A stretch of DNA of 54,366 nucleotides, counting the filler, from Perkinsus olseni (taxonomy: Eukaryota), in assembly GCA_013115125.1 (NCBI GenBank). It is 2 parts of 2 records of this genome, joined end to end, with 100 filler letters (N's around TTAATTAATTAA, not from the genome) between each part and the next. Parts side by side here need not be neighbours in the genome. Positions count along the whole stretch, not along the records: positions 1 to 27,142 come from JABANN010000471.1; 1 more part is not named here. One strand, 5' to 3'. Position numbers and translations under genes: made by a program. Shown piece by piece: positions 16,791 through 25,818 of the stretch (position 1 is the stretch's first letter; each line of letters begins with the position of its first letter). A model generated the notes under the pieces. The model worked only from the letters and a program-made list of their open reading frames with translations, ran no database searches and was not told the origin of the DNA.

Positions 16791-18195
16791 CAAGTTTCTG
16801 AAACATAAGCTACGTTTCCGCGAGCTTCGCAACTGCGTTCTAGCTTTATCTCTTCCCCCCTGTGTCAATTACGCTCCCTACAGTGAAGCGCGTTGCCGAC
16901 CCATGCACACCCAACCAACGTTTGGCTTATGTGTTTCCTGTCTATGTAGCTCATCTCCCATCACCAATGGAGTAGTGCCCTCCGAGTGGGTTTATTGCCT
17001 CCCTGGCCATAGAAGCGAGTCAGGATTTCTTGCTCGCCCGTACGGCTGAGCCTCAGCCGCTGAAGGAACTCCATGAAACAAGCTCAGGGGGCGTCAGTTT
17101 ACGGCATGGGGATCAGTTTCACCTGGGCCGACTTTTATTATATTTCTCGTTGAGCGGCTCAGTTCGACCATCACTCCGAAGTTCGCGTTGGTGAGAACGA
17201 CGGACTGAGTTGTCTCTCGCGCCTGTATTAGAGACAAACGACCATCTCCCCGGCCAGTCTGGTACAGCTATCTTCAGCTGGACTCCGTGCTAGAGATGGA
17301 TCTATCGTGGATACTTTGCGGACTCGTCGGGTACATCCGCCGATGAAATTCCCACTCCTCTGCGACCGCATCATCGCGTTTGACCGAAGCCAACCCATCG
17401 CCATTCTGGTCGCGAAATCCCGAAATGTGAAACCGCGGTAGCGCCTTGGGTGGTTTCGGGAAATCGCGGTGTTTTGATACGGTTTCACGCGAAGTACTAA
17501 CTTCATTTACTACTTCGAGAAATTGGTGTCGTGGTTACTGGGTGCCCTTCGAGTGGAATGGCGGTAAACACGAAATGAAGACCTTGAAAATGCAAGCCGC
17601 TTCTGCTCAGAATCGCCTGCGCCATTCCGAGAAGCCAAAGGAGGCCTTCCTACCACGGTAAGGCAATCAACAATCAATCTTTTATCTAGCGTTACGCTAG
17701 ATGAGAAGGTGATTCTTGGCAGTGTTCAAAGCTCGACTGAGAAGTTGGTTGCGTTGGAAGACCTGAGTGTTCGCATCGCAGATACCGTTACAACTGTGCT
17801 TGAACACAACAGCGCAGAGTAAGCTCTCTTGGCGTAGCCCAGAGGCAGAGTTGTACTTGTGTACATTGTAACTGAGAAGCTGTGACGGCTAGATTTGCTG
17901 GGCGACCTAGGACGACATAGAAGAGAGGAGTTACATTGTACAGTACTTCAAGGAGAGGCAAGCCAGAGCCAATGGCATCACAGCAATGCACACGAATCAT
18001 GACGAGGGGATTTTGTTCAGTCATTACGATCAGCCACGTCCCTGTTAGGTTGCCCCTACATAGAAAAGAGTATGATGATCAGCCACTCTCCGGCCAGATC
18101 AGCAAATAGCAGATAAGTAGTCAAGTAATACCCTTGAAGTGGTCGCCGGTTGATAAAAAATAATAATAATATGAGTCCTTCTCCAACTGCTCCTC

Positions 18196-18985
18196 TCATA
18201 CCTTTTCTAGGAAATGATAGTCACCTCGCTTGGGAACAAGAACGACTACATCGATGTCCTCCACCAAAGCACCCTCCACCGTGGTCTTGAACAGCGACTG
18301 CATCTTGGTCAGAGCCGGGCTTGAAAAGGTCAGAGTTCGGAAGCTTTGGGGATTACTTGGCCCGAGACTCACCGGGACAACACCAGTGAAGGACACGCTG
18401 GTGTCATCGTTTCTACCACCGATGCTAAGCGCCGCGGTGGGTGGGTCTGCGTCGAGGGCCATGTAAACCTGAGCATACTGTCCTCGGGTCAAACTTTTGT
18501 ATTCATAGAGCTGCTGGGCTGAGAACTCTCTTATACGGCGACTGCTGCCGAAAATAGCAATAGGATCCAATCGGTGAGTAACAGGCCTCCTTCGTGAGCT
18601 TTATAGTAGCCGATCCATCCTTGGGGTATGCATAGACGACATTTGGTTCCTCGGGGGACACCTTGAGGTCGAACAGAACGTCGGCAAAGGGATACCTCAC
18701 GGGATCTAGTTTTTGGCCATCTATTTCAATAATAACCTGACCGTCCTCACCAAGGGTTACGTCGTTGAAGTGTAGATTCATAAACTGGCCGCTCGCAGAG
18801 TTGTATCCAAGTGAAGCGCTAGTTTCAGAATCGTATTGAAACATGAAGCAGGGAAGAGTGCTCAGAGACTCGGCGTCTTGAAGCGAGCAATATCTACCCG
18901 GGGTGAGAGCCTCGGACGGGTTTGCAACAAAGGTGGATATAACGATAGCGGTGATCCCGGCAAAGATTTGGTAACGATGAAACAT
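18196..18985 (-). CDS. Secreted protein with signal peptide, split over two overlapping frames (frameshifted or pseudogene)
   Basis: ORF 18503-18985 begins with hydrophobic MFHRYQIFAGITAIVISTFVANPSEA and has two G(R/S)YC starts. Coding-like sequence continues in another frame (18196-18570). No typical-size intron reconciles the two frames. Confidence 0.55.
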
Positions 18986-19038
18986 CGCTGAATGAACCTA
19001 ATGAAACCCACTTTAAAGAATGTGACTGCAATTTATGA

Positions 19039-19091
19039 TTTAAATTTCGAAAAAGGTATTTAAATTCTAAATACCTTTTTTGAAATTTGAA
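19039..19091. repeat. AT-rich inverted repeat (21-bp stem, 1 mismatch, 5-nt loop)
   Basis: aaatttcgaaaaaggtattta (19042-19062) pairs with taaataccttttttgaaattt (19068-19088). Confidence 0.9.
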
Positions 19092-19897
19092 ATGTATGAA
19101 AGGTCGTATTTTTAAAGTGAATTTTTGAGATCGATTTAAATAATGCAACTTCGTTTTCGAAAAATTTGATAAATTCTATTATATAAGCAATGGAAGTGTC
19201 AATTCTTGGGACTAGGCCTTCGGTGCGCAGGGGGGCGGAGCTCGCATGTAGAATTCAAGCCGAGGGAATAAACAAGTGTACTGATAAGTCCACATGGACT
19301 TCGTATAAACTTGGTGTGTTGAGCTGCTTTGTCGTATGTTTCCTCCGATAAGTTACTGTCACATGTGTCACCAGAGATGACAACTACGAGCTCCAGTTTC
19401 GGTCTTTCAGCGATTGTTGAGCTTTTGACTTCGTGTTGCACGAAGCTTGCTTAGGGATCGACTTCGACATGCATAAAATAGGAATGGAAATTCGTGAAAA
19501 GGATGTGGAAAAATATCGATCACCAGAAATTGAAACGAAAATAGATAATATGGAAGAGTCAATTCTTGGAATCGATCGGTGTATAAGATGAAAGGCTCTA
19601 TACTATAAGTCTCAGAGAAATACTTTTGGAGAGCGTGCTTTTCCAGCATGGGAATTAGCTTCTTCTGCGGTTACTTGTAAATTACAAGTTGTAATAGCGT
19701 TATCATACTTCAATTCAAGCGACGCAGTCCGAACTCAACTATACTGGCGGCATGGCTGATCTTGGGCTGCCTCTTATCGGACGTGTACATCCCAGCATAC
19801 CCCCAGGGGTGGGTCTCTATGACAGTCCCCGTTGGGGATAGATAATCACCCGTTGAAGACCTGCATCACCTCCTTAGTTTGTTCTCTCAACACCATC

Positions 19898-22517
19898 ATG
19901 TGCAGCTTCCTCGTCGTAGCTGCGAGCTTGTCACTCATATATAATCTCTCCCAAGTAACACGGCGTCAGCGGAACCGCGGGCCCGACCATCACTCCGAAG
20001 TTCGCGTTGGTGACTACATTTTCATCCACGACTTGCTCCACATGACGGGCCCGCTCACACCGCAACCGTTCCTATCGGACGATCGCTCAATCGCCGTTGT
20101 GTTCAATGGTGAAATCTACAACTACAAGGAGCTCTGTCCAACTTGTCTGAGTGATGGCGAGTGCCTGGTGGGACTGTATACAACCTATGGCGCCCCGATG
20201 TTTGCCCGGCTGCTTGACGGGGAGTTCGCGATTGTTATTCATGACTTTGCGCGGCAGGTAGCCGTTCTAGCCTCTGATCCATTCGGCACGAAACCTTTAA
20301 GTTACGCCTGCGACTCTCGCGGGGTCCACGCGGCCACTTACGAATCTTCCCTCATAGGCTTGGGCTTGGAGGCTCGTCACGTGCCGCCGAATACTGTGTT
20401 GGAGATTTCCCTCGATGGTGGGTGCCGCGAGACACCACTAGGGCCGACCTTCGAGTTCGACTTGCGCCAATTCAAGACGGACACTTCAGACTGGCAGCGA
20501 GCTTTCACGGCTGCGGTGGAGAAGCGTGTGAGGTATGCCCGACCTGGGGCGGTCTTCTTAGGGCTGTCGAGCGGATACGATAGCGGTGCCATTCAGTCCG
20601 CGTTGGTGGGCATGAGCAGACCCCACTCGGCTTACTCGATCTACTCTCAGGAGGACCTGGGCATCCTCGAGGCTCGGGCTGAGTACAGCCGGAATGTCTC
20701 TGATTCAACCTTGTTCATCCTCACTGAGGGGGGCCTGGCTCTGAGCCACACCATTCTGCAAGAGCGTGGTGAGCCTTTCCATTACTCCCAACGTGGCCGC
20801 CTTGGTATGATGTTCGACGACCCAGCAGCGTCCGGCATGGCCTTCATTTGCGGAGTAGCCCGAGAAGAAGGCCGGACGCTGTACCTCAGTGGCACTGGGG
20901 CGGATGAGACCATCAGTGACTACGGTTTCAACGGCACTCGAATTTTCCCGCATAGTGATTTTGGCGGCCTGTTCCCGACGGACTTGGAAGGACTCTTCCC
21001 GTGGCAATCATTTTTCTTGGGAACTCAGCGGGATTACTTGATGAAGGAGGAAATGGTGGCAGGTGCCTTCGGTATAGAAGCGCGGTATCCCTTCCTGGAC
21101 CGGAGGGTCGTCCAGGAGTACTTGTGGTTAACGGCCGATGTGAAAAATAGTGAATATAAGAAGCCCGTGGCCGACTTCCTCGAGGGGAGTCTCTATCCTG
21201 TCCTTGAAGGGAAGCGAGGTTTTGATGCACACGTTAATATCCTCCCCGGGGTCGATCTCTCCCAACGCGTCGTGCTGGGTACGACGCAGGGCGGTGGCAT
21301 GCCACCTACGGCCAGGCAGGACGATCTCTGGAGGCTAGAGGCAGAGCTTGACCGAGCTAGGCTCTTTGCGGAGAGCTTGCAATCGTCTTTCCTTCATATG
21401 CAGACGTGGTGGTATGTGAGGTTACAGCAGACCCTGCGGAGACCGTGGCCGGCCACTCACTTGCCAAACGAGGGCATCGTCAAGGCAATCACGTGCGTGA
21501 CGGATCAGAACGATACTGTAGCTGACCTCCCCGTGTTCAAGATACTGCAAGCGACTTCTCCCGTTACCGTTGTTAATACGTGTGCCGACCTTAGGAGTTC
21601 CGATTGGAGTGGTATGAATGTGAGAGTAAAGTCCTACGCGGACTACCTCTCTAGGGAACCTCCGGATGATGCACTGTATATAGTTGTTGATGGCATGGAC
21701 GTATTCTTCAACGACTTGAGTAGACTTTCAGACACCAGGGGATTGGCGGTCGACCAATTCATAAAGGAAGTCTTCGAAACGTTCGGCAAGCCGATAGTGC
21801 TGTCCACCGAGCGCCTGTGCGGATGGGGCGGCGCCAACGAGTGCAGCGACGAAGAGATCGCCAGGTTCCCCGAGGCCTCGACCGACAGTCGTTTCCTTAA
21901 CGCGGGTGCTTACATGGGTGGCAGAGACGCCCTCCTCAGCATGCTGTTATGGGTGATAGAATTCGCTGGTACCGCCGACTTCAAATCGGACCAAAGGCTG
22001 TTCTTCGAGTTCTACTGGTCGCATCCTCATCTCGTTGCCTTGGACCATCAACAACTTCTCTTTGGCAACTTCATAGAGACTGTGGGCGTGCCGTGTCCCG
22101 ATGGTTGGAAGCCTCCGTGTGCTCACCAGCCATGCTGCACAATTAGTGATGACTTCGGGCTCTTCAACGAGACACTAGGCCTCTATGAAATTCGGGGCTG
22201 CGAGGTGGCGCGCAGAGCTGATAGCGGCGATCACCGACTCCCCATTGCTTGGCACGGAAATGGCGTTGGAAAGTGGATGTTCCTGCTGGTACGTCGCCAC
22301 AGTTGCATCGCTCCGCCTGCCTCGCTTTACGGATGAGGGGCGAAGCGGTTGTTTTCAGATCGTCGATGAGCTTGCTCGACAGTGCCCTCCGGTTGCGGAA
22401 GCCATCCTCAGTTCTACGAGTGCCGACAATATACTAAGCGGCTTTGCGGCCATAGCGCATCACCAGGAACGCAGCGAATCCTATAGAGCCGCTACGGCGT
22501 CCAGGGTTGGAGGGTAA
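19898..22517 (+). CDS. Glutamine-hydrolysing asparagine-synthetase-like amidotransferase fused to a PLOD-type (GT-A) glycosyltransferase domain
   Basis: Start MCSF gives the Ntn Cys nucleophile. AsnB motifs: RGPD, VVFNGEIYNY, LDGEFA, DPFGTKPL, LSSGYDS, LSGTGADE, EARYPFLD. C-terminal GT motifs: YIVVDGMDVFF, IVLSTERLC, RFLNAGAYMG, SDQRLF, LDHQQLLF, HGNG. One intron (22289-22358); stop at 22515-22517. Confidence 0.88.
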
Positions 22518-22766
22518 CTGTAATAGCGCATAAGATGGCATGTCTTGTAACTCCGTGTAGCTTGTGTATTCTGTCTCTAACGACCGCTATGGACTTGACT
22601 TGCCAATTCAGTCAAATGAAAACTCTGAGTGACCACTTTTGATTCGGGCCCTGAACGCGGCCAGACCTTGTGAACTCCCTACCGGGGTCTCCTAGTTGTA
22701 GTGTTGTTGTACTACCTCTTTGGAGTCTTCGGAACTCGCAGAAGTTGCAGGATTGCCATCTTGAAG

Positions 22767-25700
22767 ATGAGCGACACTCAAGCAATGGACCACACAGTTG
22801 AATCAGCAGTATCTGATCAGTTTCCAACTGCAACCACTGAGGGTAGGGGTGCGATCCCCTCATCAGGTAGCTTGGATATATTCCGCCCCGAAATCTCCTT
22901 CGTGGACGCTGCGTCATGCGTCTCCACTCTGCAGTGTGGGCCATGGGAGTCTCAGCCCTGCCAGATACAATGGAGCCTGGTCACGGTGAGGTGATGGCCA
23001 CAGAGGGGATGCTGTTGGTGATCGACGTCGAGCCATCGATGATGACAGCTAATCCGAAGGAAATGTGATGGTCGGACGTCTAGCCGAGATCATGCAGGCC
23101 GAATACCTTAAGATACGCTGACCTGTGCCGCAAGAACGACCTCCGTCCGTTGGAGTGTATCGAAGATTCTCTTGGGGATCCTCAAAGGAGCTTCACTGCC
23201 GAGGGAGTTTCATGTTGCATTAGAGGTCAGGTCAGAATGAGGGGAAGCAGTTTCTTGCAAGCCTCTTCGATACCGTGCTTGCCGAATAGAATGCCCCATT
23301 CATCGCGTTGTCCGGTAGCATGCAGTAAATTACCGCCGCTCCCATCAGACCCTGTCTCCTGTGAAGAGTCGCTTTTTGGTGGCACTCGGGTGTCTCTATT
23401 ATCAGTCTCCAATTTCCTACGTAGGTGACGGACGTCCGCAGTGCACCAGAGTCACCGCGGTTCACTGTCGTCTACTGTGCCGAGCCTTGGAGATCGCAGG
23501 CGTCAGGATAGATACGATCGACTTGTCCTATAACCCAATACAGGATGAGGGGTGCACGGCCATCGCATCGCTAGTACAAGGTGCGCTGTTACAACACAGT
23601 CCCCTTCCAGTCCGAGATGCTCCAATTCTCATCCGTAGGTGGAGCCAATAAAATCAAGCTGCGTGGTTGTATGCTGTCCGGCACGGGGGTCTCAAGGTTG
23701 CTCAGTGCCTTACGGTAGGCCTTCTTGCCCACAGAAGCTCGCTTTGAAGTGGCCAGTCTCTGTCGCCATTGATTCTGTCCGTTTGATTCCTCCATTCCTG
23801 TAATTGTGCTACATCTCTCAGAATCTTCAGGTCATCCTCGTGCGATACGGAAGAGCTCGATTTCAGTGACAATCCGATAGGAACAGCGGCCGGTGTGGAA
23901 ATAGCGGAGTACGCCTAACGCAATGATCTGCCTCTGGTCCATTCGACCAGCGATTCGCTCGCCAAACTCATCCTCAGTTGGTTGCGTCGTACTGCTGAGG
24001 AGGGGGCTGTTCTGAAAAGTAACGAAGGAGATGGAGGCGGCAACACAGGTATCGATCGTAGCACAACAGCCCATTGAAAAGAAATACGGCCACACCGCAA
24101 TCTTCCGCGGAATCACCTTTGCTCGGTACTCCGTCCTCTGGAGTGCTTCGATCACTGTGTCAACTGGAATGGTGCCAGTACTGCCAGACGGCCCGCCCTC
24201 ATCTCGTGCTCGCCAAAAACTTGGTTGTTGACGCTCTCGGATCTCACCTCGAGCGTTCGAGACCTTTCTCGGAGGCACTATCGAGGAGCGTGTTTGTGCC
24301 AGGACTGAAGTCACTGTTGGTGGATTCTTGCGACCTCGGCTACGACGCTGTGCATGCCATCATCAACGTGCTCGACCCAAATAATGCCGAGCGTCGAGCG
24401 GCGGTTGTCGAGGGGTTGGATATCTCCAATCCTCGTCTACAGAATCATCAGAACTCTCAGCTACTGTTCGAGCACATGGGCCGTATGTTGTCCAGTAACA
24501 CACGACTCCGGAAGCTGTACGTGACATCCGTGTGAAGTGACGCCGATCGAGATTCCGCTGGGGGGCATTGACGTAAACCTATTGTTGTCATTGCATTTGC
24601 CGTTGTGAGCTCGGTTTTATAACATGTATACTCCTGCTACCGCTGTCGCACGAAGACTCAAATATCTCGATGGCGGTTTCCTTTTGTCTCAACAGTTGGT
24701 TCGAGCAGGCACCTCGGCAAGATGCGAATGAAAGACGACACACTGAAGATTCTTATCGACGCTCTTGCGAGCAACCTCGATAACGAGATTGCTGTGCTCG
24801 ACCTAAGGTGAGCGATGCCACTTGTCCTTCCAGGAGTGGGCTCTCTTGTATTCGAAAGGTGCAACCTTATCGGGTGGAAGGGGTTGCAGGTATTGGCAGC
24901 GTACATTCAATCGGATTCGTGCAAGCTGACACACCTCAATCTGGAAGCCAACAGGATCGGTAAGACTGCAGGAATATTGGAGGTCCCTCCCCGTCTTCTA
25001 AGGGGGTAAAGCCGCATCCGTGATATAGAGTCCACAACGAGGGTGCAACTCACCCACTTGCGTGAAACGCCAACGTTGAAGGCATAGCGCACAACACAAG
25101 GCAACGCTTACGATCTCAAACACGGCATGAGGTATACAAACGCGCAGTGGTAACGCCCCAGACGCGACGTCCATCATCTCAAAACCTCTTCGGGGAGCTG
25201 CCGCTTCCGCGACCACGCGTCCGAATGACGACCTGATGACGAGGCTCCATCTCACCTGACGCGCATGGTGAGAAACGCGTTCAACCAACGCTGTGGGGCG
25301 CGCTACGCGTGGGAAGGCGTTGTGTCCGGATCATTGAACGCGTTATAACGTTGTTGACCCGATTAACTAGATGGACCTTTCTCAGGTGATATGTTGGAGA
25401 CAGCCGCGGTCGTCCAGTTTTGTCACGCAGTCGCACAACCGGGGGGCGGGATTGTAGCCCTGAATGTCAACCGCAATTCACTATGCGGGAATGCCCTACT
25501 TGCCCTCGTGAAGTGCGTGCGAGAGTGCGCCCCTCGCCTAGGGACAGTCATGTGGTACTTCAATGATTGGGATGAGGAGGCCAAAGAATCTGTGAGGCCT
25601 TCCACCTCTTCGTTTTGATCCACGTAAATTGTTGTGGATCCGTCATGGAAGACAATGCCTGCGTGCCAATCTTGCCTTGCTCCTTCATTCAGCTCAAGGC

Positions 25701-25818
25701 CATTCCACATCTGGAGTATCTCTCCACTGATATCTTCATACAGGAGGTATGTGACGAGAACCAGACTGCCTCGCATGCCGTTTATAATGGTAACATAGCA
25801 TGGAACTATGGTGTCTAG
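22767..25818 (+). CDS. RNI-like leucine-rich repeat protein (LRRC34-like), multi-exon
   Basis: LRRs: IDTIDLSYNPIQDEGCTAIA, SDNPIGTAAG, LKSLLVDSCDLG, LDISNP, LRKLHLGKMRMKD, LDLRCNLIGWKG, LTHLNLEANRIG, IVALNVNRNSL. Confidence 0.75.

Follow-up and report, generated by a model that had tools for sequence, protein, structure and literature searches.

The two-exon gene and its locus

A Perkinsus olseni gene of two exons, encoding 849 amino acids on the plus strand, lies at positions 19,898 to 22,517 of the DNA analysed here (the window: 54,366 nucleotides including filler, of which positions 1 to 27,142 come from JABANN010000471.1 of the GenBank assembly GCA_013115125.1). Exon 1 (19,898..22,288, +) has 797 codons, starts with Met-Cys (MCSF) and holds the AsnB-like domain, a linker and the core of a GT-A domain. 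It is followed by a 70-nt intron of the GT..AG type (22,289..22,358, +; GTACGT...TTGTTTTCAG). Exon 2 (22,359..22,517, +) has 52 codons and a TAA stop codon, and encodes a conserved C-terminal helix region (..ARQCPP..HHQERSESY..). From the ATG at 19,898 the frame is open without a stop up to 22,336. The longest ORF of the window by far has 834 amino acids, counted from an upstream TTG, and the next has 391 (seven ORFs reach at least 200 amino acids).

The initial annotation had placed the gene at 19,898 to 22,517 and described one uninterrupted frame that joins AsnB, linker and GT-A domain. This holds for the AsnB-like part, the linker and the GT-A core, while the last 52 residues need a splice; the end at 22,517 was right, yet it lies in another frame, which is reached through the intron. 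Two public P. olseni models, P0002 and P0003, use the 22,289-22,358 splice, and the P. chesapeaki protein P0004 implies it. P0002 is 100% identical across the shared part, and P0004 (843 amino acids, 74% identity) likewise begins with MCSF and ends at the same point. In BLASTP, exon 2 matches residues 796-842 of P0004, the P. chesapeaki orthologue (6e-22), and residues 770-820 of P0005, a metagenomic homologue (2e-9); the C-termini of both proteins fall within a few residues of the end point of exon 2. If unspliced, the frame stops at 22,336 after 15 extra residues that have no homologue. The public models of this locus start at Met49, lack the catalytic Cys and continue into a downstream LRR gene, and the gene structure given here corrects them in these respects.

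A Pfam search of the 38 long ORFs from 9.6 to 33.4 kb revealed no glycan genes near the gene and one weak LRR_6 match. When OGFOD2-like and other domains were compared with the window by tblastn, the only matches were this gene and the LRR exons downstream of it.

An AsnB-like half and an LH3-type half

The N-terminal half is composed of two domains. An Ntn (class II) glutaminase domain (19,898..20,470, +; residues 1 to ~190) was recognised by Pfam GATase_7 and GATase_6, by a profile alignment with 1CT9 and by an AF2 model, and it contains Cys2, N70-G71-E72, D86 and Leu46. A PP-loop (adenylating) synthetase domain (20,471..21,247, +; residues ~191-450) was recognised by Pfam Asn_synthase, the 1CT9 profile and Foldseek, and it contains S224-S-G-Y-D-S229, S331-G-T333-G-A-D336-E337 and K439. 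GATase_7 matches residues 55-146 (7.7e-17; 61.9 bits against a gathering score of 25) and Asn_synthase matches residues 200-342 (2.9e-12; 47.3 against 21 bits). The family profile matches E. coli AsnB (1CT9) with an E-value of 6.5e-34. The AF2 model of this half has a pLDDT of 92.4, and Foldseek with residues 1-450 returned human ASNS first (3.6e-25, TM 0.73), followed by AsnB, TsnB9, beta-lactam synthetase and CarA. The half thus has both Pfam domains and the two-domain fold of the AsnB superfamily, within which it belongs to a distinct 'compact' clade.

Residues for catalysis are highly conserved in 41 family members. In the glutaminase domain, the N-terminal nucleophile Cys, which directly follows the initiator Met, is kept in 40 of the 41, N70 and G71 in all, and E72 and D86 in 38 each. 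S224, G226, D228 and S229 of the PP-loop are kept in 41/41, as are D336, E337 and K439. The first Gly of the SGGxDS motif, which reads SSGYDS here, is the exception; this column has Ser in 37, Gly in three and Cys in one member.

Compared with E. coli AsnB and human ASNS (6GQ3), the protein shares the two-domain fold, the Ntn Cys, the Asn-Gly-Glu oxyanion/recognition triad, the Asp, a PP-loop, the SGxGxDE motif and a Lys near K449/K466. It differs in the SSGYDS version of the PP-loop, in the fused glycosyltransferase, in an AsnB-like domain that stops about 100 residues before the end of AsnB, and in two residues. Leu46 aligns with E. coli R49 (human R48); this column has Leu in 39 of the 41 members and Arg in none. 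R48 of human ASNS is reported as a part of the glutamine-recognition network (PMC6748925). Since the corresponding Arg is replaced by Leu, glutamine may not be the nitrogen donor, and another donor is possible. Thr333 aligns with E. coli E348 (human E364); the family has Gln in 30, Thr in five, Ser in four, and Met and Ala in one each, but never Glu. The human variants E364A and E364Q are reported as inactive (PMC6748925). Among the NCBIfam equivalog models for asparagine synthetase, TIGR01536 gave 121.2 bits against a cut-off of 267.1 and PRK09431 gave 88.1 bits against 499.

TsnB9 hydroxyamidotransferase, beta-lactam synthetase and carbapenam synthetase are also strong structural matches (1e-22 to 1e-14), and these enzymes show that the AsnB fold adenylates many different carboxylates. 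In contrast to the Perkinsus protein, none of them is fused to a glycosyltransferase, and their substrates are small secondary metabolites. Beta-lactam synthetase and CarA lack a functional glutaminase site, while the Perkinsus protein retains the Ntn Cys.

The linker (21,248..21,466, +; residues ~451-523) is partly helical and little conserved, and its length varies among homologues. It is gappy in alignment A1, the pLDDT of the AsnB model is below 50 at residues 452-458, and a linker helix appears at local residues 2-12 of the GT model with a pLDDT of about 75.

The C-terminal half contains an LH3/R699-type GT-A domain (21,467..22,288, +; residues 524-797), which was recognised by AF2, Foldseek, VIA-align and profile comparison and contains D598-G-M-D601, E638, D698-Q699 and H786..K792. 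The AF2 model has a pLDDT of 88.5. VIA-align placed the GT domain of human LH3 (6wfv) closest, over the whole domain (Z 22.7, rmsd 2.5 Å, 211/233 residues, 22% identity), with mimivirus R699 (9dyt) at Z 22.1 and the next tier at Z of about 12. Foldseek matched the model to 6wfv with 2.4e-13. The GT sequence profile matched R699 (7e-7) and LH3 (2e-5) among PDB sequences, with STE..C.W, FLNAGG and SDQ aligned. In the domain scan, in which GATase_7 and Asn_synthase exceeded their gathering scores, Pfam GT_PLOD (PF25342) matched residues 577-725 (4e-6) with 26.6 bits, 0.4 bit under the 27-bit gathering score; three fusion homologues exceed that score (P0073 with 114.7, P0058 with 84.6 and P0041 with 55 bits).

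The fusion of a compact AsnB-type amidotransferase with a PLOD/LH3-type GT-A domain, as the initial annotation had proposed, is thus borne out by fold and motif evidence for both halves. Its boundaries (AsnB to ~21,235 and GT-A at ~21,470-22,288) agree with a pLDDT that falls after residue 450 of the AsnB model and with an LH3 alignment that spans residues 524-797. The motifs that it had named were all located: DGMD at 598-601, FLNAG at 666-670, DQ at 698-699 and HGNG at 786-789.

Roles are reported for the corresponding residues of R699: D83 and D86 for Mn2+, E114 for the acceptor, and H216 and K222 for the UDP-sugar site (PMC12279948). By fold position and spacing rather than by residue-level structural alignment, D598xxD601 corresponds to D83/D86, and H786 and K792 keep the spacing of H216 and K222; by profile alignment, E638 corresponds to E114. 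In 13 fusion proteins and in alignment A3 (27 sequences), the conservation of the GT catalytic motifs is complete or reaches at least 90%. The domain thus resembles LH3 (PLOD3) and R699 in its GT-A fold, the DxxD motif, the acceptor Glu, the His and Lys spacing, FLN(A/S)GG and DQ, while its identity to them is about 20%. In contrast to them, it has ten conserved cysteines (nine in the GT-A domain and C806 in exon 2) and a Cys-rich insert at residues ~727-770, lacks the accessory domain and the lysyl hydroxylase domain, and has Met at the position of the uridine-stacking Tyr. Among proteins of known structure, those closest to the GT domain use as acceptor a sugar attached to protein (Gal-hydroxylysine of collagen), not a polysaccharide.

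Relatives in eukaryotes, bacteria and phages

Members of the compact AsnB family recur as fusions with glycosyltransferases or as neighbours of glycosyltransferase genes. The family comprises 352 clusters at E <1e-30. Asn_synthase and GT_PLOD occur together in 21 of the best 120 matches, and the hosts of the AsnB-GT_PLOD fusion are perkinsids, dinoflagellates, Amoebophrya and Triparma. One AsnB-GT fusion, P0014 of Polykrikos kofoidii, is a transcriptome ORF marked complete. Other domains are also fused in the family, namely GT25 (P0041) and an EamA transporter domain (P0047 and P0270). The C-terminal half of the ~1040-aa family members has a lead to GT2 (Pfam 3.9e-4, under the cut-off; Atlas score 0.85) and has no match among PDB sequences. 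A search for the GT domain on its own returned only 10 matches (162-518 amino acids), which look for the most part like pieces of the fusion, plus one Durusdinium protein.

In prokaryote genomes, 564 relatives were found, and the best 80 of them are generic AsnB paralogues with 23-37% identity. A close bacterial relative is P0096 of Roseibium porphyridii.

Viral contigs carry 219 loci with standalone relatives, and the best 80 of the 219 show 39-45% identity to the family query (~440 residues). Phage members are 37-46% identical to the AsnB domain of the window protein (alignment A4). At the six annotated loci, the relatives lie in glycosyltransferase and sugar-nucleotide islands of T4-like phages. 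The gene directly upstream encodes a TOD1/MUCI70-type glycosyltransferase at 36 of 61 loci; when the loci are clustered at 90% identity, this applies to 22 of 40 clusters. MUCI70/RGGAT1 is reported to be a galacturonosyltransferase in vitro (PMC10576798). The arrangement recurs in a cultured cyanophage, S-SCSM1, in which gp242 is annotated as 'asparagine synthase' and gp243 is the glycosyltransferase; the authors of the S-SCSM1 paper relate such islands to cell-wall and LPS synthesis. The protein gp242 and its relatives in uncultured T4-like phages have in common with the Perkinsus protein the compact AsnB family, the Arg-to-Leu and Glu-to-Gln/Thr replacements and the tie to a glycosyltransferase; in contrast, the phage glycosyltransferase is encoded by a separate upstream gene and belongs to another, TOD1/MUCI70-like family. 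No specific relation was detected between it and the GT domain of the window protein (hhalign, probability 0.3%). No clear UDP-glucose dehydrogenase was found beside the phage genes, where two weak sub-threshold matches fell on 250-aa ORFs. In a quick IQ-TREE analysis, the phage proteins lie across the main split from the window protein (SH-aLRT 92).

The corresponding PHROGs family, phrog_16728, is annotated as of unknown function. The word 'asparagine' is absent from the main text of the S-SCSM1 paper. Judged by titles and the openings of abstracts, none of the publications listed on an AsnB-like enzyme with a glycosyltransferase in cyanophages concerned this enzyme, and a literature search linking Perkinsus with asparagine synthetase or synthase found none. 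To my knowledge, there is no experimental work on any protein of the compact family.

Proposed function and its alternatives

With a probability of roughly 0.6, this one two-exon gene encodes a bifunctional glycoconjugate-modifying enzyme of 849 amino acids, not an asparagine synthetase, which likely amidates a sugar acid to a uronamide. What I infer is each chemical step of this proposal, which carboxylate and which donor sugar are used, whether the acceptor scaffold is a polysaccharide or a protein, and where in the cell the enzyme acts. Removal of the initiator Met would expose Cys2 as the N-terminal nucleophile, which would act on an amide donor, presumably glutamine, to set ammonia free. 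Using ATP, the PP-loop domain would adenylate a carboxylate, and the ammonia would turn the acyl-adenylate into a carboxamide. The C-terminal half would act as a Mn2+-dependent, retaining GT-A enzyme of the LH3/R699 type that moves a sugar from a UDP-sugar. The two activities would most likely share one glycan as their target. As the carboxylate, a sugar acid is the most probable, namely a uronic acid either on a UDP-sugar or already in a chain, and the product would be a uronamide, as with WbpS-type enzymes.

Some bacterial AsnB paralogues, such as WbpS and LtsA, amidate glycans or cell-wall polymers instead of making asparagine. The likeness of the window protein to these enzymes is an analogy. 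WbpS is reported as an AsnB-like amidotransferase needed for HexNAcAN in glycans (PMC6025236). WbpS-type enzymes (GalNAcAN/HexNAcAN) may be compared with the Perkinsus protein in their AsnB superfamily membership, in being encoded with or joined to glycan-synthesis genes, and in the proposed conversion of a sugar carboxylate to a carboxamide; however, WbpS is a standalone bacterial enzyme, while the Perkinsus protein belongs to a compact clade of eukaryotes and phages and is fused to a glycosyltransferase. The earlier suggestion of an amidated sugar or glycoconjugate rather than asparagine has thus gained indirect support, from two residues of asparagine synthesis that are replaced family-wide and from the recurrent link to glycosyltransferases. 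The uronic-acid idea rests on the phage neighbourhood, and a MUCI70-type neighbour occurs in only about half of the phage clusters. Further points that weigh against the preferred reading are that no clear UDP-glucose dehydrogenase was found beside the phage genes, that hhalign gave no specific relation between the phage glycosyltransferase and this GT domain, that LH3 and R699 use a protein-linked acceptor, and that GT_PLOD misses its Pfam threshold by a narrow margin.

Is this simply an asparagine synthetase with an additional domain at its C-terminus, active or inactive? This is quite improbable. Some homologues are publicly named 'asparagine synthetase', the AsnB/ASNS fold is present, and the Ntn Cys, the NGE triad, the Ser, Gly, Asp and Ser of the PP-loop and the Lys near E. 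coli K449 are all kept. In addition, D336 is invariant and aligned with human D367, which is reported to bind the alpha-amino group of Asp in a modelled intermediate (PMC6748925). However, an ordinary glutamine-dependent enzyme would hardly score so far under both equivalog cut-offs (121 against 267.1 and 88 against 499). The catalytic Glu (E348/E364), whose change to Gln inactivates the human enzyme, is absent in 41/41 members, Leu takes the place of R49/R48, the domain falls about 100 residues short of AsnB, and the family is found in glycosyltransferase islands or fusions. That an adjacent AsnB-like gene and a GT gene were wrongly read as one is hardly to be expected at all. The public models are certainly unreliable in their start at Met49 and in their run into the LRR gene, but the two halves share one frame of 797 codons without a stop, the same domain order recurs in 21 of the best 120 matches from several lineages, and the Polykrikos fusion is a transcriptome ORF marked complete.

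The GT-A domain might be catalytically dead and do no more than bind a UDP-sugar or a glycan, by which the amidotransferase would be recruited to its substrate. Its marginal Pfam score would fit this, as would the position of the uridine-stacking Tyr of R699 (Y85, the third position of DxxD), which is Met here and variable in the homologues (DGxD); the LH family, too, includes GT domains of little activity. Nevertheless, 13 to 27 homologues at only ~40-50% identity show little or no variation in the DxxD motif, the acceptor Glu, DQ and HGNG..K, a pattern expected of purifying selection on catalysis, and a dead domain is improbable. A protein-directed pathway, which differs from the best explanation mainly in its scaffold, is rather unlikely. 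In such a pathway, a secreted or wall protein would carry a sugar on one of its hydroxylated residues, the glycosyltransferase would extend this sugar, and the AsnB-like domain would amidate a sugar acid of its glycan or an Asp, Glu or C-terminal carboxylate of the protein. The only close structural relatives, LH3 and R699, are collagen Gal-Hyl glucosyltransferases, and the homologue P0041 carries a domain of GT25, the family of the collagen galactosyltransferase ColGalT. Moreover, an AsnB-GT_PLOD gene of Durusdinium trenchii adjoins a gene for an OGFOD2-like 2OG oxygenase (adjacent accessions; P0269, of 1946 amino acids, merges both), a pairing reminiscent of the GT and hydroxylase of LH3. 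On the other hand, neither an OGFOD2-like nor a GT25 gene was found in the window (tblastn; Pfam on 38 ORFs), and neighbours are often merged in dinoflagellate gene models. The S-SCSM1 authors' tie of such islands to cell-wall and LPS synthesis indicates polysaccharide or lipid-linked glycans for the phage relatives, and I know of no AsnB-family enzyme that amidates protein side chains.

If the preferred reading, a glycan-modifying uronamide-forming enzyme, is true, it would define a function for a large uncharacterised family (352 clusters and 219 viral-contig loci), whose members are now automatically named 'asparagine synthase' and also appear in lists of cyanophage 'auxiliary metabolic genes'. 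The wall and surface chemistry of perkinsids and dinoflagellates, of which little is known, would be extended by sugars that bear an amide, and the LH3-type glycosyltransferase fold would gain a second, non-collagen setting. Clams and oysters are hosts of Perkinsus, an important parasite.

A wider reading is offered tentatively, as a possibility and not an expectation. The compact AsnB clade might be an unrecognised, widespread group of glycan-carboxylate amidotransferases in alveolates, stramenopiles and marine T4-like phages. Many of its eukaryotic members might be secretory, with a signal peptide that ends exactly at the catalytic Cys, so that signal peptidase, not methionine aminopeptidase, would create the N-terminal nucleophile. 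The Perkinsus fusion would then make a uronamide-type wall or surface glycan, and the Arg-to-Leu replacement would imply that the amide donor, or the way in which it is bound, differs from that of all studied class II amidotransferases. Signal-peptide-like leaders are present in several homologues. The P. olseni protein itself starts with Met-Cys without a signal peptide, though its GT half has ten conserved cysteines.

Gene structure and public models

An ORF scan of the window revealed a reading frame that starts with ATG at 19898 and stays open until 22336. Since there are seven ORFs of at least 200 amino acids in the 54 kb and the second longest has 391, the length of this frame is far beyond chance for an intron-rich genome. 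Exon 1 (19898-22288, plus strand) begins with this ATG and ends at a GTACGT donor at 22289. It is followed by a 70-nt intron (22289-22358, plus strand), whose TTTTCAG acceptor ends at 22358, and by exon 2 (22359-22517, plus strand), which has 52 codons and then a TAA stop codon at 22515-22517. The exon 2 translation matches residues 796-842 of the 843-residue Perkinsus chesapeaki orthologue P0004 (6e-22) and residues 770-820 of the 824-residue metagenomic homologue P0005 (2e-9). The 15 residues that would be added by unspliced reading are without counterpart in the homologues. The intron and the exon 2 homology both agree with the coordinates of the initial annotation, including the end of the gene at 22517 and that of exon 1 at 22288. 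The protein is 849 amino acids long and begins with Met-Cys-Ser-Phe.

The best database match is P0002, "hypothetical protein FOL46_006936 [Perkinsus olseni]", with 100% identity over the part shared with the ORF. The 849-aa two-exon model is better than the public P. olseni models of this locus, P0002 and P0003, which together span 20042-25815 of the window. Both begin at Met49 and are thus without the catalytic Cys2, and both continue beyond the stop codon at 22515-22517 into downstream sequence. P0002 (1232 aa) is merged with a downstream LRR (RNI-like) gene (exons ~22869-25815), while P0003 has a different continuation; these models from two isolates disagree after ~22505. The 2-kb stretch before the gene (18001-20000) has the lowest GC content of the window (0.457 vs 0.51-0.60 elsewhere) and just short minus-strand ORFs without Pfam matches. 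This is probably an intergenic or promoter region.

An AsnB-like half and an LH3-like half

The initial annotation described an AsnB domain fused to a PLOD/LH3-type glycosyltransferase (GT), and this architecture was borne out by Pfam, fold models, and motifs. In the N-terminal half, Pfam detects GATase_7 (7.7e-17) and Asn_synthase (2.9e-12). A profile of 41 members of the compact AsnB family, the shortened AsnB-superfamily clade to which this half belongs, matches Escherichia coli AsnB (1CT9; 6.5e-34) and human ASNS (1e-31). The AlphaFold model made from the same alignment (pLDDT 92.4, pTM 0.92) retrieved human ASNS in a structure search (3.6e-25, TM 0.73), as well as E. coli AsnB, the hydroxyamidotransferase TsnB9, beta-lactam synthetase, and carbapenam synthetase. 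The residues for making and using ammonia are conserved: on the glutaminase side, Cys2 (40/41), Asn70-Gly71 (41/41), Glu72 (38/41), and Asp86 (38/41); in the PP-loop, Ser224, Gly226, Asp228, and Ser229 (all 41/41); and, also in every sequence (41/41), Asp336-Glu337 and Lys439.

Nevertheless, AsnB and ASNS are a close known system in fold, not in function, and identity as an asparagine synthetase was rejected on several grounds. The window protein scores 121 bits for TIGR01536 against a cut-off of 267 and 88 for PRK09431 against 499, and its AsnB-like domain ends ~100 residues earlier than AsnB. Human Arg48 (E. coli Arg49) belongs to the glutamine-recognition network, as reported in PMC6748925; this column has Leu in 39 of the 41 family members and Arg in none. 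The same report describes the E364A and E364Q variants of human ASNS as inactive, and the corresponding column (E. coli Glu348) has Gln, Thr, Ser, Met, or Ala, but Glu in none of the 41. The family-wide change from Arg to Leu in the glutaminase pocket may point to another donor or another mode of binding.

The GT_PLOD Pfam score of the window protein is marginal (26.6 bits, under the 27-bit cut-off). Unlike this score, the fold evidence for an LH3/R699-type GT-A domain is not marginal. In structural alignment, the predicted structure of residues 502-797 (pLDDT 88.5, pTM 0.89) reaches Z 22.7 with the human LH3 GT domain (rmsd 2.5 A, 211/233 residues, 22% identity) and Z 22.1 with the mimivirus collagen glucosyltransferase R699, while PBCV-1 A64R and GT6 form the next structural tier (Z ~12); Foldseek gave 2.4e-13 for LH3 vs 5e-6 for GT6. 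The GT-domain sequence profile also matches R699 (7e-7) and LH3 (2e-5), with aligned segments S-T-E..C.W, FLNAGG, and SDQ. According to PMC12279948, R699 is a retaining-type enzyme that coordinates Mn2+ through D83 and D86, packs Y85 against uridine, contacts the acceptor with E114, and has H216 and K222 in its UDP-sugar site. The window protein carries D598-G-M-D601 and E638, as well as H786 and K792 at the same +6 spacing, where the equivalence of E638 comes from the profile alignment and that of the DxxD and His/Lys residues from position and spacing in the whole-domain structural alignment rather than residue-level superposition. D598/D601, E638, H786, and K792 are invariant or nearly so in fusion homologues only ~40-50% identical, and all ten cysteines of the GT half (533, 562, 641, 649, 733, 741, 746, 747, 768, and 806) lie in conserved columns (10/10). 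The LH3/R699 glycosyltransferases are among the closest known systems, both in fold and in catalytic motifs.

Distribution of the fusion and N-terminal leaders

Is this fusion peculiar to Perkinsus? Asn_synthase and GT_PLOD occur together in 21 of the best 120 matches. Those with a named source come from the perkinsids P. olseni and P. chesapeaki, the dinoflagellates Effrenium voratum, Durusdinium trenchii, and Polykrikos kofoidii, the syndinian Amoebophrya, and the stramenopile Triparma laevis. Since several lineages carry the fusion and the P. kofoidii one is a transcriptome ORF marked complete, the single-frame fusion is old, and at least one relative transcribes it as a single unit. A literature search found no paper on the AsnB-GT_PLOD fusion or the compact AsnB family. 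This family comprises 352 clusters at E < 1e-30, mostly standalone proteins of 430-470 aa; other partners are GT_PLOD plus GT25 (P0041), TPR repeats, an EamA transporter (P0047 and P0270), and a chalcone-isomerase-like domain. Other contigs of P. olseni encode a further, second paralogue with a compact AsnB (P0025 and P0275-P0279, 560-700 aa), with 48% identity over the AsnB half and no GT domain recognisable by Pfam.

A quick maximum-likelihood tree with a midpoint root was made from 79 domains picked from the match lists, none of which was dropped after selection. The 33 rows from eukaryotes, whether fused or not, all fall on one side of a split (SH-aLRT 92), and the 46 phage, short, and 1040-aa rows fall on the other. 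The closest neighbour of the window domain is P. chesapeaki (support 100), and P0005 joins this pair next (98). Four changes of the fusion label are required on this tree, but the well-supported branches force only one change. A tight, AT-rich-looking clade of ~1040-aa proteins (P0059, P0061, P0075, P0078, P0086, and P0090) joins a compact AsnB domain, in which the PP-loop is the canonical SGGYDS, to a 560-residue C-terminal half with a DEDM motif. The match of this half to GT2 is at the level of a lead (Pfam 3.9e-4, Atlas 0.85), and the clade may be an independent AsnB-GT fusion.

Among 243 family proteins, 176 start with Met-Cys, an N-terminal extension is present in 54, and in 13 the motif detects no nucleophile Cys. 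Of the 54 extended proteins, 23 fit a crude signal-peptide rule that asks for a hydrophobic core, for small residues at -1 and -3, and for a leader that stops immediately in front of the Cys; six of the 23 are near-identical, and the fusion proteins P0008, P0011, and P0058 are among the 23. Among eukaryote-like members, hydrophobic leaders of 13-37 residues occur in P0008, P0011, P0047, P0058, P0101, P0159, P0190, P0225, P0250, and others. These sequences suggest a lumenal location for many eukaryotic members, with a nucleophile created by signal peptidase. If true, this would be an unusual activation route for a class II amidotransferase and would imply lumenal enzymes. Although the Perkinsus protein lacks a leader of this kind, the ten cysteines of its GT half are kept. 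The MMETSP transcripts P0047 and P0270 combine a compact AsnB, a signal-peptide-like leader, and a membrane domain of EamA, the drug/metabolite or nucleotide-sugar transporter superfamily.

Phage neighbourhoods and the putative substrate

Relatives of the AsnB half were also found in T4-like marine phages. Of 219 loci from the viral collection, the best 80 have 39-45% identity over ~440 residues, while the prokaryote genome collection gave generic AsnB paralogues (23-37% identity among the 80 loci listed). The 80 phage loci (IMG/VR, L081-L160) are low-GC contigs with dense, co-directional genes. L082 and L140 are from T4-like phages, because both have gp32-like genes and L140 also has a RecA/UvsX-like gene. 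In all six annotated loci, the compact AsnB gene lies amid glycan-synthesis genes, namely glycosyltransferases (GT2, GT4, GT10, GT11, GT25, GT29, GT47, O-FucT, and Nucleotid_trans), sugar-nucleotide epimerases and dehydratases, and methyltransferases. In the cultured Synechococcus phage S-SCSM1 (L161, 107030-126349), gp242 ("asparagine synthase") belongs to a gene island that also encodes three nucleotide-sugar epimerases, at least eight glycosyl-/fucosyltransferases, and two methyltransferases; the main text of the published description never mentions asparagine, and gp242 is undiscussed there. The directly upstream ORF was callable in 61 of the 80 loci (the motif filter missed the AsnB ORF in 15, and four have no upstream ORF). 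It is TOD1/MUCI70-type GT-like in 36 of the 61 (35 above the gathering score), another sugar-related enzyme in 11, and without a Pfam match in 14. After collapsing near-duplicates, the MUCI70-type neighbour remains in 22/40 clusters at 90% identity and 13/28 at 70%, and its stop codon often overlaps with the AsnB start. No family shared by the phage MUCI70-like GT and the Perkinsus GT domain was detectable, and no convincing UDP-sugar dehydrogenase was seen beside the phage AsnB genes.

Arabidopsis MUCI70/RGGAT1 is reported to transfer galacturonic acid in vitro (PMC10576798), and the AsnB-like WbpS is described as required for HexNAc-uronamide in bacterial glycans (PMC6025236); WbpS-type uronamide synthesis is compared as an analogy only. 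Taken together, these findings suggest, as the most economical guess, that the compact AsnB acts on the carboxylate of a sugar acid. The earlier functional reading, an amidated sugar or glycoconjugate, is strengthened, not proven. Met removal would expose Cys2, which would hydrolyse an amide donor; the ammonia would move on to the PP-loop site, where a carboxylate, already adenylated, would be converted into a carboxamide. The LH3-like domain would use Mn2+ bound at D598/D601 to transfer the sugar of a UDP-sugar, retaining its configuration, and the fusion would hold both steps to one glycan. Amidation may come before the transfer, on a UDP-uronic acid, or after it.

The scaffold may be a polysaccharide or a protein. 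The protein alternative deserves weight, as the nearest solved GT relatives act on collagen, a GT25 domain is added in one homologue, and the Durusdinium fusion gene adjoins an OGFOD2-like 2OG oxygenase gene, which recalls the domain pair of LH3. Neither chalcone-isomerase-like nor OGFOD2-like neighbours were found in the Perkinsus window. On three D. trenchii contigs (P0007/P0267, P0266/P0265, and P0269), a chalcone-isomerase-like domain and the OGFOD2-like 2OG/Fe(II) oxygenase gene come after the AsnB-GT_PLOD gene, and one D. trenchii model merges all three parts into a protein of 1946 aa.
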